From positions 5,692 through 69,691 of the forward strand of contig CAZZEX010000012.1 of the NCBI GenBank assembly GCA_964653285.1: a stretch of DNA of 64,000 nucleotides, read 5' to 3'. The stretch's first letter is position 1, and the number at the start of each line of letters is the position of its first letter. Shown piece after piece: positions 6,525 to 23,299 of the stretch. The position numbers and the translations under genes are program-made. The stretch comes from an uncultured Anaerolineales bacterium. GTDB lineage: Bacteria > Chloroflexota > Anaerolineae > B4-G1. The notes beneath the pieces are model-generated. The model ran no database searches and was not told the DNA's origin. It saw nothing but the letters and a program-made list of their open reading frames with translations.

Positions 6525-7637
6525 GTGGCCAAGCAAAAGATTCTGGTGGTGGACGACGATCAGGGAGGGTTGCGTTTAGTGAAACTGAGCTTACGTCGGG
6601 CAGGGTATCAGGTCGTTACAGCGGTAACGGGCGAGGAAGGCGTGCAGAGAGTTCGCACGGAGAAGCCTGACCTGGTGCTGATGGATGTGATGATGCCGGG
6701 TATGGGCGGTTTTGAGGCCACTAAGCACATTCGTCGGCTGCCTGAGGGCCGTCGCATGCCCATCATCTTCCTCTCCGCCCTGGACCGAACGGAGGCGAAG
6801 GTAAAAGGCCTGCGTATAGGGGGGAACGACTACATCGCCAAGCCAGTGAAGATGGGCGAGTTGCTGGCTCGTGTCGAGGCCCACCTGCGGCTGGAAGCCC
6901 CCGCCCCGGGCCAGTTGATCACTATGTTCGGCAGCAAAGCCGGCGTGGGTACCACCACGCTGATGGTCAACCTGGCTCTGGCCCTGGGCAATGTTTCGCG
7001 GAAGAGCGTTCTGCTGGTGGACTGGCAGCGCCCACTCGGGGATGTCGCGCTCTTTCTGGGCCTGCCCAAGAAGCGCGTATTGGAATCCCTTCTTCCCCAC
7101 GCCAATGACCTGGACGAACAGGGGTTTAACACCGCGCTGAAGGAGTACCTGCCAGGCGTGTGGATTCTTCCTGGGGCAACAGACCCGGCCTCTGCCGATC
7201 AAATGAACCGGGAGGCCTTAAGCAAAGTATTGGAAATGGCCCTGATCAAGGCGGATTACGTCCTCGTGGACGGCGGTTCCTTCTTCTCCTGGGAAGCCCC
7301 GCCTCTGGTCGCCAAGGGGAAAGGGATCAACCTGAGTGTGTTGATGCCCGAACTCACGTCCATCGAGCGAGCCGCTGATGCCGTGGGGGCCGCCAACGTA
7401 ACGAATGATAATTTCTGGCTCCTCTTGAACCGACACGGCATGCCTGGGGGCATCCCGCGTAAGCAGATTGAGTCGCGCTTAAGGATCACTCTCAAGGGAT
7501 GCGTCCCGGACGCGGGCGCTCAGGTAACCCGCGCCTTGAACGAAGGACGTCCCTTGTACATAGCCGATCCGGGTTCGGGCTTCTCCCGCGCCATAGATGA
7601 TATTGCCACGCGCATACACGAAGCCCTGGCTCCGTGA
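6525..7637 (+). CDS. response-regulator receiver fused to a TadZ/CpaE-like ParA/MinD-family ATPase
   Basis: GTG start. The REC domain has all canonical residues (VVDDD, LMDVMMPGMGG, FLSA, YIAKP). The C-terminal ParA-like domain has the deviant Walker A GSKAGVGTTT, which lacks the GK[ST] lysine as in TadZ/CpaE. Confidence 0.8.
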   Translation: MAKQKILVVDDDQGGLRLVKLSLRRAGYQVVTAVTGEEGVQRVRTEKPDLVLMDVMMPGMGGFEATKHIRRLPEGRRMPIIFLSALDRTEAKVKGLRIGGNDYIAKPVKMGELLARVEAHLRLEAPAPGQLITMFGSKAGVGTTTLMVNLALALGNVSRKSVLLVDWQRPLGDVALFLGLPKKRVLESLLPHANDLDEQGFNTALKEYLPGVWILPGATDPASADQMNREALSKVLEMALIKADYVLVDGGSFFSWEAPPLVAKGKGINLSVLMPELTSIERAADAVGAANVTNDNFWLLLNRHGMPGGIPRKQIESRLRITLKGCVPDAGAQVTRALNEGRPLYIADPGSGFSRAIDDIATRIHEALAP

Positions 7638-8808: not shown

Positions 8809-8997
8809 CGCCTATGAAAGTGTGACATGCTTCGTGAGTGTATCAATATTGCTCTGCATCAATGGTATATTCGGCAGATTCATCGGTGGGGGAAAGGAGA
8901 TGAAAAACAGAGACAAGAAAGACAAGAAACAAAGGAAAGAAACAGTGTATGTTCACCTGTCAATCGAATCTATAGTCAAATCCAAAGGAGACAAGAA

Positions 8998-9570
8998 ATG
9001 ACCAGCAAACTGAATAGGTTACTAAGAGATGAAAGTGGTATCACCGCTTTGGAGACGGCGATCATCTTGATTGCCTTCGTCGTGGTCGCAGCCGTCTTCG
9101 CCTTCACCATTCTCTCGGCCGGCACGTTCACGACCGAGCGAAGCAAGGAGGCGGTGTACGCCGGCCTTGAGGAGGTCAGGGGATCGCTGGAACTCAGGGG
9201 AAGCATCATCGCTAACGGCATTACCAGCACGAACTCCATCACCAACGTGGTCTTCACCGTCGCCAACGTTGCTGGTGGCCAGGCCGTCGACATGTCTACC
9301 ACGAGTAGGGTGGTGGTCGTCGAGTACCGCGACAGCAGCCAGCGCAAGGAGATCACCGACTGGTCAGTGAGTTGGCTGGGGTATAACGATGCAGACACCC
9401 TTCTCGAAGAGAGGGAACTGGCGGAGATCACCGTCCCCTTGAACAGCCTCAGCCCCACCCTGGGAGCCAACACGATTTTCGTCGTCGAGGTGAAACCTCC
9501 GCGGGGTGCCGTCCTCAATCTCCAGAGGACTACGCCAGCCGTTATTGACCTAGTGATGGATCTCAACTAG
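8998..9570 (+). CDS. arlB: archaellin-like filament protein 1 (class III signal peptide)
   Basis: I chose ATG 8998 (SD-like aaaggag upstream) over the 57-codon upstream ORF extension. [14 protein letters not shown] / [46 protein letters not shown] matches the archaeal flagellin N-terminal-like domain. About 190 aa, with a beta-rich C-terminal part. Confidence 0.78.
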
Positions 9571-9585
9571 AATGGGGGTAAGAAA

Positions 9586-10173
9586 ATGAATAAGAAAATA
9601 AAGATGAACAGACTGCTAAGGGATGAAAGTGGTATCACCGCGCTGGAGACAGCGATTATCTTGATTGCCTTCGTCGTGGTCGCAGCCGTCTTCGCCTTCA
9701 CCATTCTCTCGGCCGGCACGTTCACGACCGAGCGGAGCAAGGAGGCGGTGTACTCCGGCCTGGAGGAGGTCAGGGGATCGCTGGAACTCAAGGGAAGCGT
9801 CATTGCCAGGGGAGGATACATCAGCCCCACTGACGTTATCTCAGACGTGATCTTCACCGTCGCCAACGTTGCTGGCGGTCAGGCCGTCGACATGTCTACC
9901 ACGAGTAGGGTGGTGGTCATCGAGTACCGCGACAGCAGCCAGCGCAAAGAGATCACCAATTGGTCAGTGAATTGGCTGGGGTATAACGATGGGGATACCC
10001 TTCTTGAAGAGAGGGAACTGGTGGAGATAACTGTTCCCCTCACCAATACCCTTTCTCCTTACTTGGGAGCCAACACGATCTTTGTCGTCGAGGTGAAACC
10101 TCAGCGGGGTGCGGTCCTCAATCTCCAGAGGACTACGCCAGCCGTCATTGACCCAGTGATGGATCTCAACTAA
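9586..10173 (+). CDS. arlB: archaellin-like filament protein 2 (tandem paralogue)
   Basis: The N-terminal domain is the same as in 8998-9570, and a 77-nt stretch is identical (9064-9140 = 9658-9734). It diverges mainly in one internal patch. An alternative start is ATG 9604. Confidence 0.78.
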
Positions 10174-10218
10174 GGAAGGCTGGCGGATCGCCTTCGAGTT
10201 CGCGGGTCTCGACTGAGT

Positions 10219-10260
10219 GGTTCGGCTGGGTCATAGGGCCCAGTCGAACCGCTTATCTTA
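10219..10260 (+). terminator. possible attenuator/terminator hairpin after the archaellin genes
   Basis: ggttcggctggg (10219-10230) pairs with cccagtcgaacc (10239-10250) with one mismatch, followed by gcttatctta. The T-tract is weak. Confidence 0.35.
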
Positions 10261-10299
10261 AGCAGAGACCACCACCATAGCCAAAACGAGGAGGTTCTC

Positions 10300-10866
10300 G
10301 TGGAACTGGAACACAGAGTGGAGGAACTCGAACGTGAATTGGAAATCCTGAAGGAAACGATGCGAGAAACGCTGCTGGCTATTCAGAAGAGCCTGCCGGA
10401 GAAACCAGCCAGCCCTTCGCGATGGCAGAAGAAGGCCTGGATGTTGGCGCTGCTCAACACCCTCTTGGCCATCACCTTGTTCACCAACATCCGCTTCTAT
10501 ACATCGGACACCCCCCCCTTCGGGATCGGTTCCCTTCTGAGCCCCTGGCTACAGGCGTTTTGGGTGGCCTTGGCGTTCCTGTGGCTGCTCCTCCAGATGT
10601 ACCCCCTGGCGCTGCTCCTGGATCAGGAAGACGGGCGGGCGCGCAAGGTGACCTGGCGTAATTCGGTCGCGCTCTTCAGGTCCAACCCGGGGTTGACCCT
10701 CGCGCTGACGTCGTTGGTATTGATCTTGGCCACCATCAGCGCGCTGTTCCCATCGCTGTGGTTCGTGGTTATGGTGGCGCTGTTCGCCGGCGTGTGCGCC
10801 AACGCGGCGGGGCAACTGGTGCAGTCGTGTCGGCAGCGGGCACAGATAAGAGGGAAAGGAAAGTAG
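10300..10866 (+). CDS. membrane protein: N-terminal coiled coil plus four TM helices (archaellum accessory candidate)
   Basis: GTG start 8 nt after GGAGG. The N-terminus ELEHRVEELERELEILKETMRETLLAIQKSL is paralogous to the N-terminus of 11099-11359. Four hydrophobic helices follow. Confidence 0.6.
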   Translation: MELEHRVEELERELEILKETMRETLLAIQKSLPEKPASPSRWQKKAWMLALLNTLLAITLFTNIRFYTSDTPPFGIGSLLSPWLQAFWVALAFLWLLLQMYPLALLLDQEDGRARKVTWRNSVALFRSNPGLTLALTSLVLILATISALFPSLWFVVMVALFAGVCANAAGQLVQSCRQRAQIRGKGK

Positions 10867-11017
10867 AGAGGGGAAGGGAGGGAATGCACTCGAGGGCCTG
10901 TGATACCAGAGAGTGAAACTCTACTGTAACGAAATCGTAACCGAGGCCGGGTGAGGAGTGTAGTAAACTGTGTCATGGCAAGCATAAGGAGGGATCCTAT
11001 CTTTTCAATAAACCGGG

Positions 11018-11072
11018 GTAGGGGCAGGTCTTGTACCTGCCCAAGAGGGCGACCACGAGGGTTCGCCCCTAC
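11018..11072 (+). other. GC-rich double-hairpin element in the intergenic region
   Basis: gggcaggt/acctgccc form an 8-bp stem with a 5-nt loop at 11022-11042. gggcgacc/ggttcgccc form an 8-bp stem with one bulge at 11047-11068. The pair is flanked by gtagggg...cccctac. Confidence 0.35.
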
Positions 11073-11098
11073 ATATTGAGATGATACGAGGGGTCGTT

Positions 11099-11359
11099 AT
11101 GACAGTGGAACAGAAGGTCAAGATGCTCGAGTACGAAATGAAAATCCTGAAAAATGAAATACAGCGAACGCTCCTGGATATTCAGGAGCAACTTCTACTC
11201 CATTATTACCCTTCTCTCAGAACAGATGAGTCCTCGCCTCCGGAGAGCATCCTGCGTTCTATCGAAACCATCCAAAAGAAAAAGGCGGAGCGAGAGGAAG
11301 AAGAAGAGCAATCGCGTTACCTATCTGAGGAGAAGACAGACCAGACCTCCATAGTGTAG
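11099..11359 (+). CDS. small soluble coiled-coil protein (possible FlaC/ArlC-like module)
   Basis: ATG 11099 follows gaggggt (an alternative ATG is at 11081). VKMLEYEMKILKNEIQRTLLDIQEQL shares 13 of 26 residues with the N-terminus of 10300-10866. The C-terminal tail is acidic and lysine-rich. Confidence 0.55.
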   Translation: MTVEQKVKMLEYEMKILKNEIQRTLLDIQEQLLLHYYPSLRTDESSPPESILRSIETIQKKKAEREEEEEQSRYLSEEKTDQTSIV

Positions 11360-11436
11360 TTGTCGCAGCAAGTGAGCAATAGCGTGGGGAGAGGAGGCCC
11401 TCTCGCTCATAGAGAAGACAAACGAGGAGGCCAGCC

Positions 11437-11904
11437 TTGGATAAAACAATTGTGACGGCCATCATGATCATAGCGGGTGTGGTGTCCGCGGTATTTGTCT
11501 TTAACGCCCTCTACCCCGCGACCATCCAAGGCGGGGAGGCTATGATCAACATGGAGAGGAGGATAGGCGAGCGCCTCAAAAGTAAGATCGAGATCATTCA
11601 CGCCACCGGAAGCGGCAGCAATGCACTGGTATGGGTCAAGAATGTCGGATCCTTGTCCATCAAAGCAGTCGAGAGGTGCGACGTTTTCTTTGGGCCAGAG
11701 AGCGATTTCTCCCGCATCCCCCATAAAGACGAGGCCGGGGGGACCCCTTATTGGGAGTGGGAGGTGGAAAACGACACCGAGTGGAGACCCACGGCGACTT
11801 TGCAGATTACCATCACCTGTGGTGGTCCCGTCTTATCGGGGAGATACTTCGTGAAAGTGGTGACCCCCAACGGCCTCTCCGACGAGTACTACTTCAGCGA
11901 GTGA
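11437..11904 (+). CDS. ArlF/ArlG-family (FlaF/FlaG-like) archaellum stator-type protein
   Basis: TTG start 8 nt after GGAGG. N-terminal helix TIVTAIMIIAGVVSAVFVFNALYP, then IEIIHATGSGSNALVWVKNVGSLSI...CDVFFG, the beta-sandwich pattern typical of FlaF/FlaG. I cannot tell F from G by eye. Confidence 0.68.
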   Translation: MDKTIVTAIMIIAGVVSAVFVFNALYPATIQGGEAMINMERRIGERLKSKIEIIHATGSGSNALVWVKNVGSLSIKAVERCDVFFGPESDFSRIPHKDEAGGTPYWEWEVENDTEWRPTATLQITITCGGPVLSGRYFVKVVTPNGLSDEYYFSE

Positions 11905-11907
11905 CCT

Positions 11908-12408
11908 ATGGAGACGGCGATTACTGCACTCATAGTCATAGCCCTTCTGTTGTTGGTGGTACTTACTATCTCCGAGCGTTACTTCTCTGCACAGGAGGCT
12001 GTTGTGAAATCCTGGCAGGCGATGGAAGAACAAATGGAAGAGAGAGCCGGGACAAATCCCGCGCCCGTTGACGCGGGAACCATAGCCGGAGGCGCAATAG
12101 TGGAGGTAACCCTCAGGAACGAAGGAGACATCAAGTTGGCCGACTTTGACCGCTGGGACGTCATTATTCAGTATTATGATGATTTTGATGGGTACTACAT
12201 AAAATGGCTTCCGTATGCTCAGCCAGGAGACAGGTGGGTAGAGGTATTTCCCCCAGAAGCACAGGTTTTTGATCCGAACATCCTCAATCCAGGTGAGGAG
12301 ATGGTGATTCAGATATCGGTTTCGCCCTCGGTGAAGGAGGGATCCACCAAGTGGGTGACCATCGCCACCCCCAATGGCATCACCGCCTCGACGGTCTTTA
12401 CACGTTAG
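11908..12408 (+). CDS. ArlF/ArlG-family (FlaF/FlaG-like) protein, second member
   Basis: METAITALIVIALLLLVVLTI N-terminal helix, then IVEVTLRNEGDIKLADFDRWDVIIQY. The start lies 3 nt after the previous stop. Confidence 0.68.
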   Translation: METAITALIVIALLLLVVLTISERYFSAQEAVVKSWQAMEEQMEERAGTNPAPVDAGTIAGGAIVEVTLRNEGDIKLADFDRWDVIIQYYDDFDGYYIKWLPYAQPGDRWVEVFPPEAQVFDPNILNPGEEMVIQISVSPSVKEGSTKWVTIATPNGITASTVFTR

Positions 12409-13160: not shown

Positions 13161-13652
13161 ATGAATGGTTTCGTATGCAAGCCAGTGGACCCCGACGAAC
13201 TCCACAGGGGCACTGAACCGTTCCTGCCTCGGACCCCAGATCTACGAGTACGAGAACGCCAGGTAGCGGAGAAACCACAGTTCACCCTGCCGGTGGATCT
13301 CGACGAGGCTCTGAGAGTGGTAGATGGGGACGATGATCTCTTGCGAGACGTGGTTGAAATGTTCTCAGAGGAATGCCCCAAACAGGTGGAGGCGTTGAGA
13401 GAGGCTCTGGCACGGCAAGACGCACCGGATGTCGAAAGTACGGCGCACAGGCTGAAGGACATCCTGGGCAACGTCGGAGGCCTGGCAGCGCGCGATCTGG
13501 CCCAGCGCATGGAGACTATGGGCGAGGAGGACAAACTCGATGGCGGATCGGCTGTGCTGGAAGAACTGGAAGTTGAGATAAGGCGCGTGGTGACATTCTT
13601 TTCGGAACTGGGATGGGAGCAAGGTGCCCTTGGACGTGAGGGAGGGCAGTGA
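13161..13652 (+). CDS. stand-alone histidine phosphotransfer (HPt) protein
   Basis: ATG follows GAGGAG. LDEALRVVDGDDDLLRDVVEMFSEECPKQVEALREAL...STAHRLKDILGNVGG is the HPt four-helix pattern with the AHxLK phospho-His motif. The N-terminal 45 aa are unrelated (see finding). Confidence 0.8.
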   Translation: MNGFVCKPVDPDELHRGTEPFLPRTPDLRVRERQVAEKPQFTLPVDLDEALRVVDGDDDLLRDVVEMFSEECPKQVEALREALARQDAPDVESTAHRLKDILGNVGGLAARDLAQRMETMGEEDKLDGGSAVLEELEVEIRRVVTFFSELGWEQGALGREGGQ

Positions 13653-14095
13653 TGGGTGCTAAGGCGCGTGTACTTGTCGTTGACAATAACCGTCGCACGG
13701 TGATAATCATCAAACATGCCTTGAAAAAGCAAGGCTGCGAAGTTCTTACCGCCTTCGACGGCAAAGAGGGGTTACGAAAGGCACGAGAGGAGAAGCCCGA
13801 CCTCGTCATCTTGGATGTCATGGTGCCCAGAATGAATGGGTACGAAGTCTGTTACCGCCTGAAAACCGATCCGGATACCGCTCACATAGCGGTGCTCATG
13901 CTCACCGCCGAGGGAGAAATTGATAATGACGCGAGGCATCAATTTACCGACCGTCTCGAAAACCAGTTACAGGGTCTCGAGATTGGGACCGTAGATTTCT
14001 TGACCAAGCCGATTAAAGCGAGAGACCTGCTGAGGCAAGTGAAGACATCGCTTTACCGGTTGTCCCAAAGACCGGTGGTGGAGTTTCGAGATTGA
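13652..14095 (+). CDS. single-domain CheY-like response regulator
   Basis: The ATG shares one nt with the HPt TGA stop. VLVVDNN, DLVILDVMVPRMNG, LMLTA and DFLTKP show that the phospho-Asp, Thr and Lys are all present. Confidence 0.85.
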   Translation: MGAKARVLVVDNNRRTVIIIKHALKKQGCEVLTAFDGKEGLRKAREEKPDLVILDVMVPRMNGYEVCYRLKTDPDTAHIAVLMLTAEGEIDNDARHQFTDRLENQLQGLEIGTVDFLTKPIKARDLLRQVKTSLYRLSQRPVVEFRD

Positions 14096-14108: not shown

Positions 14109-15173
14109 ATGGCTAAAAAGATACTACTGATCGAGAACGATCTTCAAATCATGAATCTAATCAGGGAGCCCCTCGAGGATGAGGGCTACGTGGTGGTGAC
14201 GACCAGGGATGGTCCCGAAGGACTGAAACTGGCCAGGAGGGAGCAGCCCAATCTCGTAGTAGTGGACTTCAACCTGCCAAGTATGACGGGGAACATAGTC
14301 GCCCGCCGCCTGCGACATGATCCAGCCACGGATCACCAGGCGATCCTCATGATCTCCGGCGAGGATCAGTTAGAGGAAATAGAGATTGGTCCTAAAACAA
14401 GTGCCGACGACTTCCTCATCATGCCTTTCGATGTCGCGGAATTGTTGACCAAGGTCAGGCCCCTACTTATAGGTGCAGAGGATGAGAAAGGGACAGTGAT
14501 CTCGACGGGGAACAGCGAACTCGACGTCAAGATGGGAGGAGGAATACCCATGGGCTCCTTGACCCTGATCGAGGGCGATTCGGGGGCCGGCAAATCCGTG
14601 CTTTCCCAGCAGATGATGCGTGGGTGCCTGGACAATGGACATAGACTAACCCTCTTTAGTAGCGAGAACACAGTGAAGAGCCTGGTCACACAAATGCAGA
14701 GCCTGAATTTAGGCATCCTGGACTATCTCCTCTTGAGCAGGCTGAGGGTAATTCCTATCGAGACCTCGCGACTGGGCGGGGATGCTCCTTCCATCTTGAT
14801 GGAGGCCATGCAAAAGGAGGAGAAGGGGCACGAGATTACCATTGTGGATTCTCTTACCTCATCCATTCCCGGCTCCTCCGAAAAGGAGGTGCTCATCTTT
14901 TTCGAGGAGTGCAAGAGGCTGTGTGCGAATGGCACAAGTGTCATCATCGTCGTTCACTCTCACGGCCTGACCAGTGAACTCCTCGCCCGCATCCGGTCTC
15001 TTTGTGATGCCCACCTCCAGCTGCGCACTGAGGAGGTGGGACAGAAGATGGTCAAGGCTTTGGAAGTGACGAAGGTAAGGGGAGCAGATCAACACACAGG
15101 CAATATCATCAGCTTCGAGGTGGAGCCAGGATGGGGGATGAGGGTCATACCCATAAGCAAGGTCAGGGGATAG
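14109..15173 (+). CDS. arlH: receiver domain fused to ArlH (FlaH) KaiC/RecA-like ATPase
   Basis: N-terminal 120 aa are REC-like (ILLIEND, NLVVVDFNLPSMTG, LMISG, but DDFLIMPF with Met in place of the conserved Lys). The C-terminal 230 aa read ELDVKMGGGIPMGSLTLIEGDSGAGKSVLSQQM...ITIVDSLT, the FlaH Walker A/B pattern. Confidence 0.82.
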   Translation: MAKKILLIENDLQIMNLIREPLEDEGYVVVTTRDGPEGLKLARREQPNLVVVDFNLPSMTGNIVARRLRHDPATDHQAILMISGEDQLEEIEIGPKTSADDFLIMPFDVAELLTKVRPLLIGAEDEKGTVISTGNSELDVKMGGGIPMGSLTLIEGDSGAGKSVLSQQMMRGCLDNGHRLTLFSSENTVKSLVTQMQSLNLGILDYLLLSRLRVIPIETSRLGGDAPSILMEAMQKEEKGHEITIVDSLTSSIPGSSEKEVLIFFEECKRLCANGTSVIIVVHSHGLTSELLARIRSLCDAHLQLRTEEVGQKMVKALEVTKVRGADQHTGNIISFEVEPGWGMRVIPISKVRG

Positions 15174-15179
15174 AGTTTT

Positions 15180-16865
15180 GTGGCGCAGATGGAGTTGCCT
15201 TTTGCCTATGAGAAGAGCAATAGCGGACGCGCCCGCGACTCTAACCGCCGCCTCCACTCTCTACTCCCCAAGCCTCTACAGAAGGCCTGCGCGGAGAATA
15301 ATTTCCTCGACGATTACCTGCACTGGCTTCCAATTGATGAGATCGGTGTTCCCGACTACTATCCTAGACTCTCGAGGAACCTGAAGGACCTGGCGGTGCG
15401 TAACCTGATCTACCAGATTAAAGATGGTCTCTTCATCCACATTTACCCCGACCCGACGAGCGCAAGAGATATTTACATCCCCATAGAACCTCACATGACG
15501 GTGGATCTGGAGGATATCATGCCGGAGGTAGAGGCCAAACTCCTGGATTGGGCCGAGGAAATCGGCCTGGCGGAGACAGAGGAGGAGAAAAAGGAAGCGC
15601 TTGTGCGCGCGATAGACGAGATCGTCACCACCAACGCCGGAGTTGGGAAGACTCAGGTGACGCCCCGGCAACTGGAGGGGCTCCGGTACGTCATCACACG
15701 AGACAAGGCCGGCCTCAGTGTGCTGCAGCCGCTGCTCCTGGACCCCTACATTGAGGATATAAGTTGCAGCGGGGTGGGGTCTATCTTTATCGAACATAAG
15801 GTCTTCAAAAGCCTCCAGGCCGCCATCGTGTTCCCCACCCACGAGGACCTGGACGACTTCGTGGTCTGGATGGGCGAGTGGATTAAGAGACCCGTCACTA
15901 TACGCAACCCGATTGTGGACGCCACGCTTCCTGATGGGTCTCGTATAAATATCGTCTATGGAACCGACATCTCCAAGCGAGGGAGTAACTTCACAATCCG
16001 CAAGTTCAGCGAAACTCCTATCAGCATAATGGAACTCATCGAATTCGGAACTCTGGACTACATGATGGCTGCATATCTCTCCTTCATCCTTGAGGAGGGT
16101 ATGAATATGTTCGTCGCGGGCGCGACGGCGTCGGGCAAAACGACCACGCTTAATGCCATCACCACCTTCATCCTCCCTGACAAAAAGATCGTGAGCATAG
16201 AGGACACACCGGAACTCCAGGTCCCCCACAAGAACTGGATTCGAGAGGTGACCAGGGGAACAGGGCGAGAGAGCAAAGATAGCGCGGTGGGGATGTTCGA
16301 TCTCCTCAAAGCGGCCCTGAGGCAGCGCCCGGACAGGATCATCATTGGAGAGATCAGAGGAGAAGAAGGGGCTATTGCCTTCCAGGCGATGCAAACGGGG
16401 CACGGGGTGCTGTCCACCTTCCATGCTGCTTCTGTGGAGAAGCTCATCCAGCGCCTTACCGGAGAGCCCATTAACATACCCCGGGCTTACGTGGATAACC
16501 TCGACGTGGTGATTATTCAGGCTGCCGTGAGGGCACCCGGTGGGGGAGGAATGGTGCGGCGGATCCTCAGCATCAATGAGATCGTGGGGTACGATCCAAC
16601 TAGCAAGAGTTTCTCCTTCATCGAGGCCTTCCGCTGGAACCCGACAAGGGACACTTTTGACTTTCCAGGTTACATGAACAGCTATCTTCTGGAGGAAAAG
16701 ATAGCCATGAGGCGAGGCATCCCTCCTCACAAGAGAAGAGCGATCTACACAGAACTTAAGAAGAGAGCGAAGATCTTTGAGAAGCTCCATAGACAGAGAA
16801 AGGTGAGGGATTTCTATGACGTCTTCAAAATCACCGCAGAAGCGCACCGGCAAAATCTTCTCTGA
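15180..16865 (+). CDS. arlI: ArlI (FlaI) archaellum assembly/motor ATPase, type II/IV secretion NTPase superfamily
   Basis: 561 aa. FlaI-type N-terminus (NLIYQIKDGLFIHIYPD...YIPIEP). Walker A VAGATASGKTTTLNAI, plus EDTPEL and IIIGEIRGEE motifs. GTG 15180 start (alternative ATG 15189). Confidence 0.88.
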   Translation: MAQMELPFAYEKSNSGRARDSNRRLHSLLPKPLQKACAENNFLDDYLHWLPIDEIGVPDYYPRLSRNLKDLAVRNLIYQIKDGLFIHIYPDPTSARDIYIPIEPHMTVDLEDIMPEVEAKLLDWAEEIGLAETEEEKKEALVRAIDEIVTTNAGVGKTQVTPRQLEGLRYVITRDKAGLSVLQPLLLDPYIEDISCSGVGSIFIEHKVFKSLQAAIVFPTHEDLDDFVVWMGEWIKRPVTIRNPIVDATLPDGSRINIVYGTDISKRGSNFTIRKFSETPISIMELIEFGTLDYMMAAYLSFILEEGMNMFVAGATASGKTTTLNAITTFILPDKKIVSIEDTPELQVPHKNWIREVTRGTGRESKDSAVGMFDLLKAALRQRPDRIIIGEIRGEEGAIAFQAMQTGHGVLSTFHAASVEKLIQRLTGEPINIPRAYVDNLDVVIIQAAVRAPGGGGMVRRILSINEIVGYDPTSKSFSFIEAFRWNPTRDTFDFPGYMNSYLLEEKIAMRRGIPPHKRRAIYTELKKRAKIFEKLHRQRKVRDFYDVFKITAEAHRQNLL

Positions 16866-18306
16866 CCTCAGCAGAGGGATTTCGGGCTTCGATATCTTCT
16901 ATCAGCTCACGTACATGTCTGCCACGTCGGCGGCAGGGATCTCGAGGGACAGGGTTTTCGCGCTTGCCCGCCAGTTGCCCGCTCCTCCAGCCCAATGCTT
17001 CAGTGCGATCAATGACCTGGTCGCGAATTTGCGTTACAGTTACCCTGATGCCTGTCGCATGGTTGGCGAACGTGTGAAGTCGGATGAGATGAAGACCTTC
17101 CTGCTGCGGCTCTCTGACGCCCTCAGGTCAGGGGAGCCGCTGGCAGCCTTCTTGGCGCGGGAAGCCCGGGTGCAGGGGGAGAACTACTCGAATGAGTATG
17201 AGCGCAATCTGGAGAGTCTGAAGAAATGGAACGATGGCTATACAGCCGTTACCGTCTCGGTGGCGTTGATTGTGATCATTAACATGGTTTCATCTATGAT
17301 CTACGATCTGGGAACCGCCACGATGGTAGGGATGGTGGTAGTAGCTGCCATAATGGGCCTTATTATAGCCTGGATCTTATCCCGATCAGCGCCGCAGGAA
17401 ACCAAGCACGGCCCTCTGGCGGAAGGTGCCAAGGAACAGCACCTCAGCCTCAAACTCTTCCGCATCCTTTTCCCCATGGCAGGGGTCACAAGCCTGGCCC
17501 TCGCGTTGTTAGGAGTGAATTGGGGATGGACCATGATCGTGGCATCTCTCCTTATGGCCCCTATAGGGGTAGCCAGCCTGTTCGCTGACAGGAAAATCAC
17601 CAAGAAGGACGCGGAAATCAGCGCCTTCTTTCGCTCTCTGGGGGGGACGGCCACCTCAAGAGGAACCACGCTGACGGATGCTTTGACCAACATGAAGATA
17701 GATTCCTTTCCCACGCTAGAACCGGACATAAAGAGGCTTAGCCTGAGGCTCAGAGCCATTGGTAATCCTGAACTCTGCTGGCGGATGTTCGGAATTGAAA
17801 CAGGCAGCAAGCTGATAGACCAGACCACGGGCGTTTTCTATGGGGCGATACACCTGGGAGGGGACCCGGAGAGAGCGGGAGTTCTCTCCAGCCTATTCTC
17901 CATGAGGACCGCCATGCTGCGGGCTAAACGGGAAGGTGTTGCCGCCACCTTTACCTGGCTTTTAGTAGTGATGCACACTGTACTTGCAGCACTTATGGTC
18001 TTTCTCTTAGAGATCATTCGCCAATTCACAATCCTGTTAGAGGAGGCTATGGCGCCACTGGGACAAGGTGAGGAGGCAGTGCAATCGCCTGGAATGGACA
18101 TGGCTTTCTTCGGCACCCCCCGGATTCCATTCCTTGAGACGATAATGATAGGGATGATACTTACACTTGCCTTGACCAATGCATTCGCAGCCGTAGCCAG
18201 CGAGGGATCGCACTTACTTAAGATCTTTTTCTATTTGTCCATTTTGCTGCTCCTATCGGGGGTAAGTTTCCTCATCGTCCCCTCAATGGTACATCTGGTA
18301 ATGTGA
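16816..18306 (+). CDS. arlJ: ArlJ (FlaJ) polytopic membrane platform protein
   Basis: FDIFYQLTYMSATSAAGISRDRVF...FLLRLSDALRSGEPLAAFL...KKWNDGYTAV is the FlaJ/T2SSF pattern, duplicated, with multiple TM helices. It overlaps arlI by 50 nt. Confidence 0.82.
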   Translation: MTSSKSPQKRTGKIFSDLSRGISGFDIFYQLTYMSATSAAGISRDRVFALARQLPAPPAQCFSAINDLVANLRYSYPDACRMVGERVKSDEMKTFLLRLSDALRSGEPLAAFLAREARVQGENYSNEYERNLESLKKWNDGYTAVTVSVALIVIINMVSSMIYDLGTATMVGMVVVAAIMGLIIAWILSRSAPQETKHGPLAEGAKEQHLSLKLFRILFPMAGVTSLALALLGVNWGWTMIVASLLMAPIGVASLFADRKITKKDAEISAFFRSLGGTATSRGTTLTDALTNMKIDSFPTLEPDIKRLSLRLRAIGNPELCWRMFGIETGSKLIDQTTGVFYGAIHLGGDPERAGVLSSLFSMRTAMLRAKREGVAATFTWLLVVMHTVLAALMVFLLEIIRQFTILLEEAMAPLGQGEEAVQSPGMDMAFFGTPRIPFLETIMIGMILTLALTNAFAAVASEGSHLLKIFFYLSILLLLSGVSFLIVPSMVHLVM

Positions 18307-18313
18307 AAAGGCT

Positions 18314-19261
18314 ATGACGTTCACAGAGGAAAATCTGCAAGCCACATCAGGGCACCTCGAGGCCACCCTCAATGGATCTGACAATGTAGACAATCATGAG
18401 GCTGAGGCGGGGAAGTTGGCGGGTCTCAAGGACCTCGTAAGGGGATCTCGAGGCACCCTCCTCGGACTGGTCTTTCTGGCTGGGCTGCTCCTGGGTTGGG
18501 TGGTCATCGGTTGGTGGCTCTGGCCGGTGAAATGGACCAACTCCGAGCCCTGGCTCCTGCGTCCGGAGCACCAAAGGACGTTCGTCGGCCTGGTGGCGGA
18601 CGACTATTGGCATACCAGGGATGTATCCCGAGCCAGGCAGGCCCTGGCTGGCTGGGATGACGAAGCCCTGACCAACCTCATGGCCACGATGCAGTCTCAG
18701 GCATCCAGCCCTGAGGAGTGCCAGCACCTGGCAGCGCTGGCGGATGCGCTGGCACTGCCGAATCCAGAAGAGTCTTTATTAACCTCTCTCCTTAATCATA
18801 AGATCCTCATCTTGAGCGCTGTCTTGTCAGCAGCGCCGCTGGTGGCGGCGATTGCTCTTGCTGTTTCTCCCCTGATGCGGCGCGGAGTGAAGAAGCATAA
18901 AAGACTGCTGGGTCAAGGAGTAGAAGATCTGGAAGAAGAACTTGAACAACTGCTGGCTCAGGAAAAAGAACAACAGGCTCAAGAAGAAGAACAGGAGGCT
19001 GGAGAAGAGGAAGAAGAGAAGGAGTGGGAAGAAGGTGAAGAAGAAGAAGAAGGAAATGAATGGCTGGATGAAGAAATAGGGGAAGAAGACCAAACGATAC
19101 AGGGTATTCTGTCGGGCATCTTCGAGGAGGAAGATGAGACACTGGGCTATTATGCATCCATCTGCAAGAACTTGGAGGATATAGATATAGATGATCTGGT
19201 ACAAAAGAGCCAGGAGGTAATGGGGCAGATCGTGAGGAGTAACACGCTACGCCAGGCATAG
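18314..19261 (+). CDS. two-TM membrane protein with extremely acidic Glu-rich C-terminal tail, unknown function
   Basis: TM helices LLGLVFLAGLLLGWVVIGWWLW and ILILSAVLSAAPLVAAIALAV. The tail reads EDLEEELEQLLAQEKEQQAQEEEQEAGEEEEEKEWEEGEEEEEGNEWLDEE. The gene is tightly packed between arlJ and the peptidase gene. Confidence 0.6.
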   Translation: MTFTEENLQATSGHLEATLNGSDNVDNHEAEAGKLAGLKDLVRGSRGTLLGLVFLAGLLLGWVVIGWWLWPVKWTNSEPWLLRPEHQRTFVGLVADDYWHTRDVSRARQALAGWDDEALTNLMATMQSQASSPEECQHLAALADALALPNPEESLLTSLLNHKILILSAVLSAAPLVAAIALAVSPLMRRGVKKHKRLLGQGVEDLEEELEQLLAQEKEQQAQEEEQEAGEEEEEKEWEEGEEEEEGNEWLDEEIGEEDQTIQGILSGIFEEEDETLGYYASICKNLEDIDIDDLVQKSQEVMGQIVRSNTLRQA

Positions 19262-19300: not shown

Positions 19301-20020
19301 ATGACTCTTCCGTGTGCATTGGTGGGACTGTTGGTGGGGAGCCTTCTCAACTGGGCCGGGGATTACCTGCCGCGCTTCGCCTCCAGCAGCGCGGCTTCTT
19401 CGTATGAACCCACTCCCCGGCCCAGGTCCGCCCTGTGGTATCTACTGACATCCTCCCTATTCCAGAGAAACTTGGTTCACCTCCAGAGATCGTCCTGGTT
19501 GGGTGTTGCAGTGGAGATTCTCACCGCCTTACTCCTCGCCTATCTCTGGGAACGTTTCGGGCCATCATGGAGACTGCTCTTGCTGGCTCTTACCGGCTTC
19601 TTTTTTTTGCTCATCGCCATCATTGACCTGCGATACCGGTTGGTTCTGAATGTGTTGATCTACCCTGCTGCTGTGGTGACATTGCTCATTCACTCTGTGC
19701 CCCCTGGAAAGGATACCCTCATCGCTCTCCTGGGTGGCGCAGTCGGACTTGCACCCTTCTTGTTGGTGGCCCTGCTTAAGCCAGGAGATATAGGCGGGGG
19801 CGACGTAAAACTGGCCGCCCTCATCGGGCTGATGGTCGGTTTTCCGCAGGTGCTGTGGGCTCTGTCGCTCGGCATCCTGGCAGGCGGGATCACGGCTCTT
19901 ATCCTTCTTTTCACCCGTCGTTGGGGGCCCAGGAACTACATTCCCTATGCTCCCTTCCTCTGCCTGGGGGCAGTGTTCTCCCTTGTCTACGACCCTTCCC
20001 CCCTGATATTCCCTCTTTGA
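19301..20020 (+). CDS. A24-family prepilin/prearchaellin signal peptidase (PibD/ArlK/FlaK-like)
   Basis: Polytopic. The two catalytic Asp contexts are LLIAIIDLRYRLV and GDIGGGDVKLAALIG. Confidence 0.85.
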   Translation: MTLPCALVGLLVGSLLNWAGDYLPRFASSSAASSYEPTPRPRSALWYLLTSSLFQRNLVHLQRSSWLGVAVEILTALLLAYLWERFGPSWRLLLLALTGFFFLLIAIIDLRYRLVLNVLIYPAAVVTLLIHSVPPGKDTLIALLGGAVGLAPFLLVALLKPGDIGGGDVKLAALIGLMVGFPQVLWALSLGILAGGITALILLFTRRWGPRNYIPYAPFLCLGAVFSLVYDPSPLIFPL

Positions 20021-20101
20021 ATAGGGTGAGGCATCTGCTTCAGTTTACAATTGCCAAACTACAATTTGCGGAAAGAGATGCTTTGTGGTAGGATAATTGA
20101 C

Positions 20102-21745
20102 ATGGCTTCACAAGACTCTCTTGACCTCAACGGCCCGCTGGAGCAACCCCAGCCACGCAGCCCACGCCGGGGTACGATAATCCTGTGGCTGGTAGCAATC
20201 AGTGGGGTCATCCTTCTCCTTCCTCTCTACCTCGTCTCCACCACCATCCGTGGCGATATCACCCGTTCGGAAGCCAATCTCCAATCTGCCCACGAGGCTC
20301 TGACAAGCGAAGGAACGCCAGAGCCCGAGGCCCAAGAGATTATGGACGACCTGGCCCAGGTACAGGGAACGGTTAACGAGATTGAGGGAGTATATTCCGC
20401 CCTGGCAGCCGGTCACGTCAATTGGCCGGCTGTAATGGCCGCCATTGGCAACTACGATCCGTCCCAACTCGCTCTCGATTCTGTCGCCCACTCCGGTAAC
20501 CAAATCACCCTCAACGGGCGAGCCATTGACGACTCCGCTGTGATGGTCTACAGTCGTGCCCTCGAAGAGTCGGACCTTTTCTCCCGCGTCGTCGTGCAGT
20601 CCGTGAGGCTGATCGCCACTCCCTTTGCATCACCGACGGGCACGGCGGTGGAACCATCAGGGACACCTCTGACGCCTACCGCGACTATTACACCCACGGC
20701 GACCCCCACTCCGACCCCCGACCCGACCGATGGATATGAGGTGGATGACTTCACACCCAAGGTCATCCTCCTGGGCCAGCCACAATCACACAACTTCTAT
20801 CCCGTCTACGACGTGGATAGGGTCAAGTTCCTCGCCAAAGCGGGGCGCTACTACCGAGTTTCCACCGCGGACCTGTCTCCAGGGGTGGATACTTTCCTGA
20901 CCATGATCCTGGGAGGAACCACCTACACCAACGATGATCGCGAACCAGGCTCTCTGAGTTCCGAGATCATGTTTCAAGCCGGGGCCGGCAGCGACGTGGA
21001 GGCGATCGTCAAAGTGACGAACCGGGGACAGTATGGTACTGACAGTTGGTACCAGATCACCGTTGAAGAGATTATCCCCACACCCACACCGACGCCCACA
21101 CCCACACCGACGCCCACGCCCCTGCCCACACCGACGCCCACGAGTCTCCCCCCTCCCACCGCCACACCGGCAGATACACCCACGCCTACTCCGGACCTGC
21201 GTGACGAGTATGAACCCGACGATACTAACCCCCAACCCATCGCTATGGGAGAGATGCAGAAACACAATTTCTATCCGGATAACGACACGGACAGGATGGA
21301 GTTCCTGGCCAAAGCAGGGCGCTACTACCGGGTCTCCACCTCAGGCCTGATGCCGGGGGTGGACACTTTCCTGACCGTGAGCCTGGGTGAAACCATCTAC
21401 ACCAACGATGATCGCGACGATAATCACGAACCAGGCGACCTGAGTTCCGAAATCGTCTTTCAAGTTGAGAGCGGTGACGTAAATGCTCTCGTCGAAGTGA
21501 CGAATCGGAGACAGTATGGCCCTGACAAGTGGTATCAGATCACCGTTGAAGAGATTGCCCCCACACCCACCCCTACATCCACAAGCACGCCCTTGCCCAC
21601 GGATACACCATCGTCTTCCTCAAGTTCCTCAAGGCTTCCTGGCGTAGCCTCGCTGGCCTGCGGGGGTGGGAGGCCTTCAGGTGTTTTCAGCCCCACGGCG
21701 GTTGAATTTGTGATTGCCTTGGAGTTAAAGACAGAATCGCCATGA
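20102..21745 (+). CDS. PilN-like bitopic protein with two extracellular PPC (pre-peptidase C-terminal) domains
   Basis: I chose ATG 20102. A short cytoplasmic N-terminus is followed by one TM helix (IILWLVAISGVILLLPLYLV), a coiled coil and a PilN-like fold (QITLNGRAIDDSAVMVYSRALEESDLFSRVVVQSV). Two ~115-aa repeats then follow (D.YE.DD...Q.HNFYP..D.D...F.AKAGRYYRVST..L.PGVDTFLT......YTNDD), separated by TPTP linkers. Confidence 0.68.
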   Translation: MASQDSLDLNGPLEQPQPRSPRRGTIILWLVAISGVILLLPLYLVSTTIRGDITRSEANLQSAHEALTSEGTPEPEAQEIMDDLAQVQGTVNEIEGVYSALAAGHVNWPAVMAAIGNYDPSQLALDSVAHSGNQITLNGRAIDDSAVMVYSRALEESDLFSRVVVQSVRLIATPFASPTGTAVEPSGTPLTPTATITPTATPTPTPDPTDGYEVDDFTPKVILLGQPQSHNFYPVYDVDRVKFLAKAGRYYRVSTADLSPGVDTFLTMILGGTTYTNDDREPGSLSSEIMFQAGAGSDVEAIVKVTNRGQYGTDSWYQITVEEIIPTPTPTPTPTPTPTPLPTPTPTSLPPPTATPADTPTPTPDLRDEYEPDDTNPQPIAMGEMQKHNFYPDNDTDRMEFLAKAGRYYRVSTSGLMPGVDTFLTVSLGETIYTNDDRDDNHEPGDLSSEIVFQVESGDVNALVEVTNRRQYGPDKWYQITVEEIAPTPTPTSTSTPLPTDTPSSSSSSSRLPGVASLACGGGRPSGVFSPTAVEFVIALELKTESP

Positions 21746-23109
21746 ACTTCTTGAGTAGATTGGGAGAGCGTATCCCGTCCGGGGAGCGCCTCTATTCCCT
21801 GCTGGCTATCGTTGTCATCATCGCGGCAGCGCTTGGCATCATTTTTTTCATCAGATTCTCCATCCTGCCACAATGGCAAACCAGAAGCGAACTGGCCTTC
21901 CAACTGGCTGCGGCGCAGCAACAACTGGTGGACACCGAAAGGGCCCAGGAGGAGAACCCCGACAAGTTAAGGGAGCAACTGGAAGCGGCGCAGGCCAAAC
22001 TGGACGAGGCATCTGGTCTCTTTTTCAGCGAGTCCCAGGCGGCTGAAGTGTTGAACAATCTGTACCAGTACGCCAACGAGAGTGGTGTGGAGATCACCAG
22101 TCTGCAAAACCAACCTGGTCCAGAGGAGGAAAAGAAGGACATCTACGACGTCAAGACGTTCCAACTGCAAGTCGCAGGCTCTGTTCCCAATTTGATTGCC
22201 TTCATGTCCCGGATCAAGGAAGCCACATCTGAGAGCTTCATAATCAGTAATGTGAACATCGTAGAAGGCGAGAAACTACATACCCTCACCATGGATATCA
22301 CTCTCTATACCTCCCCCTACTCCTCTGGAGCGGCTGACCAGGCAGAGCCTGGCATCATTCCCACGGTGACACCGATAAACCTGACTCAGTTAGAGAAAGA
22401 GCTGGCGACAGCCTGGGCGGCGGAAGATTGGGACCAGGCGATATTCCTCATCAACCAGATCCGGGCCATAGACCCAGATTACGATGACATGGCGGAGAGA
22501 CTTTACATGGCCTACGTCAATTATGGTTCCCAGCTCTTGACGGAGGGAAACAGCGGCGAGGCGATAGCGCAGTTCGACCTGGCTCTGGAGATCAAACCAG
22601 GCGGGGAGGAGGCTGTGGCGGGGCTCCAGCAGGCTTCCGTTACACCAACTCCAACCTTGAGCGTGGAGGAGCAACTGGAACAAGACCTGGACGATGCGTG
22701 GGAGGCGGGAAACTGGGAAGAGGCCATCAGCCTGATCGAGCAGATATTGGAGATCAACCCTGAATACGACGAGATGACCGAGAAGCTCTACGCAGCCCAC
22801 GTGAGCTATGGGTACCAGCTCGCTGCTGAGGGAAAACTTGAGGAAGCGAAGGGGGCATTCAGCCATGCCCTAGACATCAAACCTGACGGAGAGGAGGCCA
22901 AGGCTGGGCTGCAACAGTTGGCTGGTGGCACGCTGCCTTCAACGCCGACCCCAGAATCTCAGTACACTATCCACGTGGTTCAGCGAGGCGAGAACCTGTT
23001 TCGCATCGCGCTGCGCTACGGCACCACCGTGGAAGCGATCATGGCAGCCAACGGGCTGACCAACAATACTATTTACGTGGGCCAGCAGCTGCGCATCCCC
23101 ATCCGCTAG
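21742..23109 (+). CDS. PilO-like bitopic protein with TPR repeats and C-terminal LysM domain
   Basis: ATGA overlap with the previous gene. One TM helix, a coiled coil, then AEVLNNLYQYANESGVEITSLQ...FQLQVAGSVPNLIAFMSRI (PilO pattern). Two TPR-like repeats (W..A...I.QI..I.P.YD.M.E.LY.A.V.YG.QL...G....A...F..AL.IKP). LysM: YTIHVVQRGENLFRIALRYGTTVEAIMAANGL...VGQQLRIP. Confidence 0.68.
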   Translation: MNFLSRLGERIPSGERLYSLLAIVVIIAAALGIIFFIRFSILPQWQTRSELAFQLAAAQQQLVDTERAQEENPDKLREQLEAAQAKLDEASGLFFSESQAAEVLNNLYQYANESGVEITSLQNQPGPEEEKKDIYDVKTFQLQVAGSVPNLIAFMSRIKEATSESFIISNVNIVEGEKLHTLTMDITLYTSPYSSGAADQAEPGIIPTVTPINLTQLEKELATAWAAEDWDQAIFLINQIRAIDPDYDDMAERLYMAYVNYGSQLLTEGNSGEAIAQFDLALEIKPGGEEAVAGLQQASVTPTPTLSVEEQLEQDLDDAWEAGNWEEAISLIEQILEINPEYDEMTEKLYAAHVSYGYQLAAEGKLEEAKGAFSHALDIKPDGEEAKAGLQQLAGGTLPSTPTPESQYTIHVVQRGENLFRIALRYGTTVEAIMAANGLTNNTIYVGQQLRIPIR

Positions 23110-23160: not shown

Positions 23161-23189
23161 TTGACAACCCCTCACCCGCGTGTTATACT
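23161..23189 (+). promoter_or_regulatory. sigma-70-type promoter of tRNA-Lys (TTGACA-17-TGtTATACT)
   Basis: TTGACA at 23161-23166 and TATACT at 23184-23189 with a 17-nt spacer. The tRNA 5' end lies 10 nt downstream of the -10 element. Confidence 0.65.
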
Positions 23190-23198: not shown

Positions 23199-23272
23199 GG
23201 GCCGTTAGCTCAGCCCGGTAGAGCAGGGGCCTTTTAAGCCTTTGGCCGCAGGTTCGAATCCTGCACGGCCCA
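23199..23272 (+). tRNA. tRNA-Lys (anticodon UUU)
   Basis: 74-nt cloverleaf folded by hand: acceptor GGGCCGT/ACGGCCC, D arm GCTC..GAGC, anticodon stem GGGGC/GCCTT with loop CTTTTAA, T arm GCAGG-TTCGAAT-CCTGC, discriminator A. CCA is not encoded. Confidence 0.9.
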
Positions 23273-23299
23273 CTGGGGGAAGCAGACAAGTAGACAAGC

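Follow-up and report, generated by a model that had tools for sequence, protein, structure and literature searches.

PilN-like and PilO-like proteins with PPC-like, TPR and LysM ectodomains at the end of an archaellum gene cluster from an uncultured Anaerolineales bacterium

In archaea, the archaellum stator formed by ArlF and ArlG is anchored to the S-layer. How a rotary motor that evolved with an archaeal S-layer is accommodated in a peptidoglycan wall became a question with the discovery of bacterial archaella in 2025. In Litorilinea aerophila, a pilN gene and a pilO gene with a LysM domain were found next to the archaellum genes and were suggested to help anchor the archaellum in the peptidoglycan wall (Sivabalasarma et al. 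2025, PMC12488501). The present analysis concerns a comparable gene pair, encoding a PilN-like and a PilO-like protein, in a 64,000-nucleotide stretch of contig CAZZEX010000012.1 (assembly GCA_964653285.1, uncultured Anaerolineales bacterium), which is referred to as the window.

PilN and PilO were further proposed as an alternative alignment scaffold (Front Microbiol 2026, PMC13319060). The same study reported the absence of pilM, pilP and pilQ from L. aerophila, the production of Tad-like pili by this bacterium, and an extra density at the archaellum base in one tomogram. Peptidoglycan biosynthesis genes were present in 235 of 244 archaellated Chloroflexota, 34 of these 235 encoded pilO and pilN, and pilO-LysM stood next to arl genes in only three genomes of the survey (PMC13319060). 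GCA_033763755.1, which is locus L016 of the present comparison, was listed there as positive in two pil columns taken as pilO and pilN, without pilO-LysM near the archaellum genes. Both papers called the function speculative and mentioned neither PPC nor TPR domains, and a low expression of pilN and pilO was described in L. aerophila (PMC12488501, PMC13319060 for the former; PMC12488501 for the latter). A LysM domain also attaches a type IV machine to murein in the case of TsaP, through which the secretin of the type IVa pilus is bound to peptidoglycan (Siewering et al. 2014, cited in PMC13319060). TsaP, however, is a separate protein on the PilQ secretin of diderms, whereas the window has LysM as part of the PilO chain and lacks a secretin.

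The window resembles L. aerophila in its assignment to Chloroflexota, a complete arl cluster, nearby PilN and PilO, a C-terminal LysM on PilO and the lack of PilM, PilP and PilQ, and the same anchor or scaffold hypothesis applies. The idea of a peptidoglycan anchor or alignment function is therefore not new, as it was published in 2025 and 2026. In the window, the PilD, PilN and PilO genes follow directly after arlJ in one co-oriented block, whereas in L. aerophila PilD lies outside the archaellum locus and the PilN and PilO genes are placed upstream of the locus in the Discussion (PMC12488501). Moreover, the PilN of the window differs by two inserted PPC-like domains and its PilO by two TPR modules before the LysM. 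The closest relatives of the window are metagenome-assembled genomes (MAGs) labelled Anaerolineae or Anaerolineales, while L. aerophila is listed under Caldilineales. Metagenome contigs added at least nine dereplicated lineages with pilO-LysM near arl genes beyond the three published genomes. New here are the insertion topology of the PPC-like domains, the joint loss of pilus features, and a synteny both wider and tighter than in the literature; with the concept already published, the gain is incremental.

A comparison with the type IVa PilM-PilN-PilO system of Pseudomonas aeruginosa, Myxococcus xanthus and Thermus thermophilus (structures 2rjz, 3jc8) revealed a shared short cytoplasmic N-terminus, transmembrane (TM) helix, coiled coil and two-fold alpha-beta-beta core, together with adjacent genes in the order N then O. 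The window locus departs from this system in lacking PilM, PilP and PilQ, in a degraded INLLP-type motif, in large ectodomains that are absent from canonical PilN and PilO, and in the location of the genes inside an archaellum operon. On balance, we lean towards the reading that the pair derives from a type IVa alignment subcomplex, became uncoupled from PilM, and was kept with a stripped-down PilD at the 3' end of a horizontally acquired archaellum operon, where it may serve as a collar at the wall. The pair would then probably fit the archaellum motor into the bacterial wall. Few loci join pilus alignment genes as tightly to an archaellum operon as this one, and the signs of co-option are the loss of PilM, the eroded docking motif, the lost zinc motif of PilD, and purifying selection as on the arl genes.

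The pilD, pilN and pilO genes stand in an operon-like arrangement with the arl genes. The plus strand between 8.8 and 23.1 kb of the window carries a bacterial archaellum cluster with arlB, arlF/G, arlH, arlI and arlJ (Table 1), and the same arl gene set is present in related loci. The gaps measure 7 nt between arlJ and the membrane protein gene, 39 nt between this gene and pilD, and 81 nt between pilD and pilN, and the promoter scan revealed no promoter-like site in the last of these. The open reading frame of the PilN-like gene is open from 20051, with the ATG at 20102 favoured as the start by homologue alignment. The pilN stop and the pilO start overlap in an ATGA that could be read directly at 21742-21745; PilN and PilO co-occur strictly and their genes are translationally coupled by this overlap, which speaks indirectly for a putative heterodimer. 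A tRNA-Lys(UUU) gene begins 90 nt past the PilO stop behind a strong promoter-like site (23161-23189), and it is also found 3' of PilO in L024, L026, L028, L029, L031 and L039. Since the tRNA follows PilO with its own promoter-like site, the archaellum cluster ends with pilN-pilO. The first-pass annotation, made from the letters of the window, had described two overlapping genes directly after the peptidase gene that terminate the archaellum operon, and both descriptions could be confirmed.

The 547-amino-acid (AA) PilN-like protein matched Pfam PilN (PF05137) over AA 111-169 with 30.6 bits, above the curated cut-off of 22.8. A profile built from 12 members of the PilN-like family found M. xanthus PilN (3jc8_Na) as its best match in the PDB (E=8.6e-4). 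The AlphaFold model had a mean predicted local distance difference test score (pLDDT) of 67, rising above 90 over AA 111-170, and contained an unbroken TM/coiled-coil helix at AA 23-68. The PRSPRRG sequence ahead of the TM helix fits an N-in topology. Secondary structure assignment with DSSP gave the order H108-115, E123-131, E134-141, H144-156 and E160-171, followed by E533-542. The PilN-like protein is accordingly predicted by the model to be a bitopic protein with a PilN core into which two PPC-like domains are inserted.

The presence of two PPC domains, as claimed at first pass, holds in the model at the level of the fold and falls short of the Pfam threshold at the level of the family. 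Foldseek of the whole PilN-like model returned the tandem collagen-binding domains s3a-s3b of ColG (5iku) as the best PDB match (E=3.6e-8), and the collagen-binding domains of ColG collagenase are presumably the structural type of the PPC family. Pfam PPC (PF04151) reached 15.7-17.7 bits for domain 2, under the cut-off of 25.9, and domain 1 scanned alone had no Pfam match. The pLDDT of the two domains was 70-90, while the Pro/Thr linkers were of low confidence.

The position of these domains within the PilN fold could be approached through short relatives. All PilN-like homologues, which range from 200 to 820 AA, are closed by the same C-terminal strand (consensus VEFVILVELK; VEFVIALELK in the window). 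The short forms have a Pro/Thr loop of variable length between the third core strand and this C-terminal one, and the corresponding Pro/Thr loop of the window protein contains both beta sandwiches. Long family members likewise align to the short-form profile in two or three pieces. In the model, strand 533-542 has a pLDDT of approximately 86, although the alignment behind the model places the C-terminal strand of the short forms on the first PPC domain, so that the strand is left without alignment depth. The short-form profile reached M. xanthus PilN in the PDB only at E=0.05 with an alignment that ends before the C-terminal strand; the insertion is therefore argued from sequence conservation and the AlphaFold model, not from a solved structure. 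On these grounds the PPC tandem appears to be an insertion in the beta3-beta4 loop, ahead of the last strand, such that the fourth PilN strand would be supplied from the C-terminus by a putative strand pairing.

The PilO-like protein (455 AA) is a bitopic PilO homologue with TPR and LysM domains. Pfam PilO (PF04350) matched AA 58-193 on positions 10-143 of the 145-position model with 31.7 bits (cut-off 22). Foldseek of the PilO-like model placed M. xanthus PilO (3jc8_Oa) at rank 2 with E=4.2e-5 and aligned the crystal structure of P. aeruginosa PilO (2rjz_A) over 139 columns with E=3.4e-4 and a TM-score of 0.63 on the target; the pLDDT of the core was only 55-80. DSSP gave the core order H97-114, E117-124, E135-146, H148-162, E167-174 and E180-190. 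A profile of this core searched against PDB sequences returned coiled-coil noise only, and the link to PilO comes from Pfam and Foldseek instead. Several TPR families were above their cut-offs, namely TPR_2 (45.8 vs 27), TPR_14 (43.6 vs 23.5), TPR_19, TPR_1 and TPR_8; the model has ten helices over AA 214-394, and TPR proteins prevail in the Foldseek list. The C-terminal LysM (PF01476) scored 61.4 bits (E=7.5e-17, cut-off 20.9) and adopts a beta-alpha-alpha-beta arrangement in the model (E407-412, H419-426, H430-437, E449-454). The earlier assignment of both proteins as bitopic homologues of PilN and PilO, with TPR and LysM on the second, was in agreement with these results.

Relatives of the pair were gathered from a scan of species-representative genomes, which gave 11 loci (all from Anaerolineae MAGs), and a scan of metagenome contigs, which gave 43 more; contigs encoding further homologues added L001, L002, L014-L021 and L065-L068, and word-based protein searches found few relatives. 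The loci were classified by tBLASTN with three sets of queries (window proteins, L008 pilus proteins and L014 arl proteins), and dereplication at 90% PilN-core identity left 46 clusters. Among GTDB representatives, L003 is closest to the window, with 74% identity in the PilO-like core. Arl genes were present in the same locus in 17 clusters, PilD stood directly upstream before the contig end in 6, PilM and/or PilT without any visible arl gene occurred in 5, and neither could be seen in 18, mostly with less than 4 kb visible upstream. When at least 6 kb upstream of PilN was visible, arl genes were found in 14 of 19 clusters. The co-occurrence with arl clusters suggested by the earlier note was thereby found across related genomes.

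The gene order arlH-arlI-arlJ-(membrane protein)-PilD-PilN-PilO is shared by the window, L003/L023, L024, L026-L032, L044/L045, L050, L051 and L054. The distant loci L014-L016 and L020 have the order with an inserted FHA-GAF histidine kinase; their PilO-like proteins are 33-39% identical to that of the window and their PilN-like proteins are short forms of 200-225 AA. These distant arl-linked relatives include another order, Aggregatilineales (L016). Only the kinase-PilD-PilN(-PilO) part is visible on the short contigs L065-L067, and L018, L019 and L052 show ArlH-(membrane protein)-PilN. The conserved arl neighbourhood of PilN/PilO spans relatives down to approximately 35% identity. Among the distant PilO-like proteins (33-39% core identity), C-terminal domains other than TPR-LysM were found in L014:10672-11898, L016:10617-11717, L020:4475-5602 and L021:827-2254: the C-terminal parts of L016 and L020 are Cys-containing and beta-rich, L014 has a weak CE2_N-like match and L021 a weak PPC match. 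An SH3b-like nature had been suspected for the C-terminal parts of L016 and L020, and Pfam gave no known domain for them. With the short-form PilN profile, representative clusters (50% identity level) numbered at least 224 at E<1e-30 and 1154 at E<1e-3. The majority measure 200-225 AA, and roughly one in four is a long form whose match is split.

Members of the same PilN/PilO subfamily were also located in pilus-type clusters. In L005, L007-L010, L042, L048, L049 and L057 the genes run PilN-(peptidase)-PilO-PilM-PilD-PilT. Pfam analysis of L008 gave the order TPR-L,D-transpeptidase, PilN with a BACON domain, a 1397-AA C1 peptidase, PilO-TPR-LysM, PilM_2, PilD with A24_N_bact, and two PilT-size ATPases. 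The PilO of this sister clade is 52-56% identical to the window PilO-like protein and the PilN core 43-49%, and the clade shares the PPC-type insert in PilN and the TPR plus LysM on PilO. It differs in having PilM, an intact VNILP motif, two CxxC pairs in PilD, one or two PilT-size ATPases, an extra BACON domain in PilN (seen in L008), and a giant C1 peptidase between PilN and PilO; PilD is downstream of PilO in this clade and upstream of PilN in arl-type loci. Neither PilB nor PilC could be detected in any pilus-type locus. TPR plus LysM occurs on nearly all complete close PilO homologues, arl-linked and pilus-linked alike, and since the TPR/LysM/PPC architecture is found in the PilM-linked clade, the ectodomains are not archaellum-specific. 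The first-pass annotation had regarded the LysM-bearing pair as a plausible bacterial add-on to the archaellum; with LysM, TPR and PPC-type ectodomains on pilus-linked relatives and no detectable LysM on distant arl-linked PilO-like proteins, this view had to be corrected.

Two of the pilus-type loci carry arl genes on the other strand. In L047:1-4444 and L049:1288-4521, a divergent arl cluster with arlB, the 92-AA gene and arlF/G (L047 also has arlH and arlI) lies approximately 5.5 kb upstream of a pilus-type PilN. L049 shows PilO and PilM too, while L047 ends after PilN. As L005 and L049 are at least 90% identical in the PilN core, the arl clusters of L047 and L049 indicate that at least part of the pilus-linked clade is archaellated. 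A neighbour-joining tree of PilN cores supported the PilM-linked clade with 100% and its backbone, from which an ancestral arl or PilM context would have to be read, with only 45-53%.

These clusters bring in the explanation of a regular type IV alignment module whose pilus is encoded elsewhere, and which stands beside the arl operon only through the PilD that both filament systems share and with which PilN/PilO travel. PilN and PilO are by definition pilus alignment proteins, the pilus-type loci combine the same TPR-LysM and PPC-type domains with a canonical PilM-binding motif, and L047 and L049 demonstrate that pil and arl genes can be adjacent without loss of pilus features. We nevertheless consider this explanation unlikely, because arl-type loci lack PilM and have a degraded docking motif and a CxxC-less PilD, the block persists in exact order down to 33-39% identity, and selection on PilN/PilO equals that on ArlJ. 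We know of no pilus alignment complex that works without PilM docking. The reported absence of pilM, pilP and pilQ from L. aerophila (PMC13319060) speaks in the same direction.

The loss of pilus-specific features could be followed in three components. No PilM or PilT homologue was detected by tBLASTN in the 64-kb window, in line with the earlier statement that PilM is missing, and PilM was present in pilus-type loci only. The 315-AA gene between arlJ and pilD was considered as a divergent PilM and rejected, given its two TM segments, acidic tail and lack of similarity to the PilM of L008. At the PilN N-terminus, F[IV]D[VI]NILPE, an INLLP-type PilM-binding motif, occurs in all 14-15 PilM-type loci and in none of about 30 arl-type loci. 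The counterpart in the window is SLDLNGPLEQ; the subclade of the window retains the partial relic [FS]DL[DNSG][NDSG]LPEQ, and distant arl-type members have acidic residues only. Judged from this alignment, the N-terminal peptide of the window PilN is a degraded relic of the PilM-binding motif, so that SLDLNGPLEQP, for which the earlier note had considered docking to something other than PilM, is no peptide without kinship to the F[IV]DVNILPE of the PilM-linked relatives. Both the CxxC pairs and the A24_N_bact match are missing from the PilD of arl-type loci, whereas that of pilus-type loci has two CxxC pairs. The three pilus features vary together: PilM, the PilM-docking motif and the PilD zinc motif are all lost or degraded in arl-type loci only. 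The CxxC-less PilD of arl-type loci may also be a specialisation for archaellins.

Such losses might be taken to mean that the pair is a decaying leftover of a lost pilus system that hitch-hikes with pilD and has no present function, a thought to which the lost PilM, the eroded N-terminal motif and the low expression in L. aerophila (PMC12488501) lend some colour. However, the ratios of nonsynonymous to synonymous substitutions (dN/dS) between L044 and L051 (dS approximately 0.7) were 0.07 for PilN and 0.10 for PilO, compared to 0.06 for ArlJ and 0.05 for ArlI. Values of 0.07-0.10 indicate that pilN and pilO are under purifying selection equal to that on core arl genes and are not decaying. 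Dozens of lineages keep intact reading frames, conservation is strong in the core, the C-terminal strand and LysM, and the family numbers at least 224 representative clusters at the strict threshold given above, so that a leftover without function is very improbable. Amino acid identity between the window and L003/L024 was 77-81% for PilD, PilN and PilO, at least as high as for ArlH, ArlI and ArlJ. Synonymous divergence in the same comparison was approximately 0.37-0.48 for PilD, PilN and PilO and 0.73-0.91 for ArlH, ArlI and ArlJ; the lower value over 19301-23109 than over 14109-18306 suggests different histories of the two blocks, or a compositional effect of the Pro/Thr linkers.

Two further genes of the pilus-type loci share modules with the pair. 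An L,D-transpeptidase (YkuD) gene is located just upstream of PilN at L008:1523-2959 (also in L005 and L010), and its TPR module is approximately 33% identical to the PilO TPR. The 1397-AA C1 peptidase gene between PilN and PilO (L008:5609-9802, also in L005 and L010) encodes a lectin domain and PPC-type repeats, which are 33-48% identical to those of PilN. The kinship of the PilO TPR with that of a transpeptidase beside PilN in PilM-type loci can be read as a sign that the pair is a general wall-associated scaffold outside the motor, which may stabilise or position PilD or wall remodelling at the pole and would let any filament, archaellum or Tad pilus, cross the peptidoglycan without bearing torque. 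In arl-type loci PilD invariably stands next upstream, the C-terminal ectodomains swap freely (LysM, TPR plus LysM, other beta domains), and L. aerophila also makes Tad-like pili (PMC13319060), all of which would suit such a scaffold. It is quite unlikely in our view, since the window operon encodes neither a hydrolase nor a transpeptidase and the linkage is tight to arlJ rather than to wall-synthesis genes; it also overlaps the alignment-scaffold version of the collar reading, from which it is hard to separate by sequence.

According to the collar reading, a pilus alignment pair that already had wall-directed ectodomains would have been kept and specialised beside the archaellum, while the remaining pilus apparatus was dropped from the locus. 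The PilN-like and PilO-like proteins may, like PilN and PilO, associate by way of coiled coils and ferredoxin-like cores and may form a membrane-anchored collar round the archaellum platform (ArlJ and partners), whose ectodomains would link or guide the machine through the zone of the bacterial wall. In this arrangement LysM would bind peptidoglycan, the TPR modules may contact proteins, and the PPC-like sandwiches on their long Pro/Thr linkers could reach outer layers. From the known PilN/PilO heterodimers that ring the platform protein and from the peptidoglycan binding of LysM domains, we infer a heterodimer or ring, a contact with archaellum parts, a binding to peptidoglycan, and a role either as torque anchor or as passage and alignment scaffold. 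The MurJ gene in the window suggests that the host makes peptidoglycan.

Several observations weigh against a collar of this kind. The pair is encoded by only 34 of 235 archaellated Chloroflexota with peptidoglycan genes (PMC13319060) and is therefore not generally required for a bacterial archaellum. No arl gene was found within 8-10 kb in L001, L012, L053, L057 and L059, and LysM was not detected by Pfam in distant arl-linked PilO-like proteins. Close relatives with identical ectodomain architecture adjoin PilM, a canonical PilD and two PilT-size ATPases, and a pilus system with PilM could be encoded outside the 64-kb window. A contact of the pair with any Arl protein has neither experimental nor structural support, here or in the literature. 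Furthermore, arlF/G is retained in the window. The pair resembles ArlF/ArlG as a proposed static link between the rotating archaellum motor and the rigid envelope, whereas ArlF/ArlG has no sequence or fold relationship to PilN/PilO; with the ArlF/G-like genes kept, PilN/PilO would be an addition and not a replacement, and nothing here shows that a bacterium requires the different anchor that was assumed at first pass.

A more specific version of the collar reading is possible, though doubtful. Here the arl-linked PilN/PilO would be a dedicated PilM-independent envelope adaptor, in which the collar takes over or reinforces stator anchorage through interchangeable wall-binding ectodomains (LysM, TPR-LysM, other beta domains). 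Its N-terminal peptide, altered to the subclade consensus [FS]DLxxLPEQ, would dock a cytoplasmic archaellum part, with REC-ArlH, ArlI or the acidic tail of the 315-AA protein as candidates, and PilD would be a co-adapted archaellin peptidase. If true, such an adaptor would be a record of how a horizontally acquired motor exapted pilus parts step by step.

Table 1. Features of the archaellum cluster and of the PilN-like and PilO-like proteins in window coordinates
Feature	Position	Strand	Basis or remark
Two archaellin genes	8827-9570, 9586-10173	+	Pfam Arch_flagellin 93.5 and 91.8 bits
Two small conserved genes of unknown type	between archaellins and arlF/G, within 8827..12408	+	
Two ArlF/G-like genes	11437-11904, 11908-12408	+	weak FlaF_Ig-like and Arch_flagellin matches
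Hpt protein and CheY-like receiver	13161-13652, 13649-14095	+	
REC-ArlH fusion	14109-15173	+	Pfam Response_reg plus KaiC-type ATPase
ArlI	15180-16865	+	Pfam T2SSE
ArlJ	16816-18306	+	Pfam T2SSF
315-AA two-TM membrane protein, acidic tail	18314-19261	+	between arlJ and pilD; no Pfam family
PilD-type prepilin/prearchaellin peptidase	19301-20020	+	Pfam Peptidase_A24 only, no A24_N_bact
PilN-like gene, 547 AA	20102-21745	+	Pfam PilN 30.6 bits; AlphaFold model
Cytoplasmic N-terminal peptide DSLDLNGPLEQP	20114..20149	+	alignment with PilM-linked relatives
TM helix of PilN-like protein, AA 24-46	20171..20239	+	sequence; model helix AA 23-68
PilN core, first three strands (alpha-beta-beta-alpha-beta), AA 108-171	20423..20614	+	DSSP of model
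PPC-like beta-sandwich domain 1, AA 228-324, Pro/Thr linkers on both sides	20783..21073	+	model strands, Foldseek
PPC-like beta-sandwich domain 2, AA 386-485	21257..21556	+	Pfam PPC below cut-off; Foldseek
C-terminal strand, VEFVIALELK region, AA 533-542	21698..21727	+	conservation; model
PilO-like gene, 455 AA	21742-23109	+	Pfam PilO 31.7 bits; Foldseek
PilO core (alpha-beta-beta-alpha-beta-beta), AA 97-190	22030..22311	+	DSSP; 2rjz_A alignment
Two TPR-like helical modules, AA 214-394	22381..22923	+	Pfam TPR; model helices
C-terminal LysM, AA 411-453	22972..23100	+	Pfam LysM; model
tRNA-Lys(UUU)	23199-23273	+	ARAGORN; promoter-like site 23161-23189; 3' boundary of cluster

The 315-AA membrane protein between arlJ and pilD had no Pfam match even at E up to 10, and its tail is Glu-rich and predicted to be cytoplasmic. 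It is conserved directly after arlJ in L003, L023, L024, L026-L028, L030 and L031 (53-65% identical), and a 52% identical homologue follows ArlH in L018. Versions of 166-183 AA in L014 and L020 share only a C-terminal motif (ILSxxFxxEE…) with E of approximately 1e-5. This protein is a candidate for a lineage-specific archaellum component.

A 92-AA gene at 11081-11359 (+), between the archaellins and arlF/G, belongs to no known family; even between very divergent arl clusters (L014, L016, L018, L047, L049) its product retains 55-77% identity. The ArlH of the window carries an N-terminal receiver, with Response_reg at AA 5-117 and the KaiC-type ATPase at AA 132-349, and is preceded by the Hpt protein and the CheY-like receiver. 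ArlH matches of approximately 350 AA with 63-70% identity in L003, L024, L029, L032, L044, L050, L051 and L054 are consistent with the same receiver (REC) fusion; a plain ArlH was seen in the distant clusters L014 and L016, and L018 has a separate REC-Hpt protein. Through this fusion a phosphorelay could act directly on the motor, in a phylum from which CheF is reported to be absent.

The G+C content of the arl region (8-20 kb) was 54.5-55.8%, compared to 58-67% in the nearest flanks. A group of flanking features at 3093-4316 (-), 6525-7637 (+) and 26399-47282 includes a protein with cohesin and double LysM. Just upstream of the arl cluster, a ParA/MinD-like ATPase with a fused receiver is encoded, and downstream of the cluster MurJ is accompanied by a long run of glycosyltransferase and methyltransferase genes. 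This run and its surrounding genes could relate to archaellin glycosylation or to surface polysaccharide.

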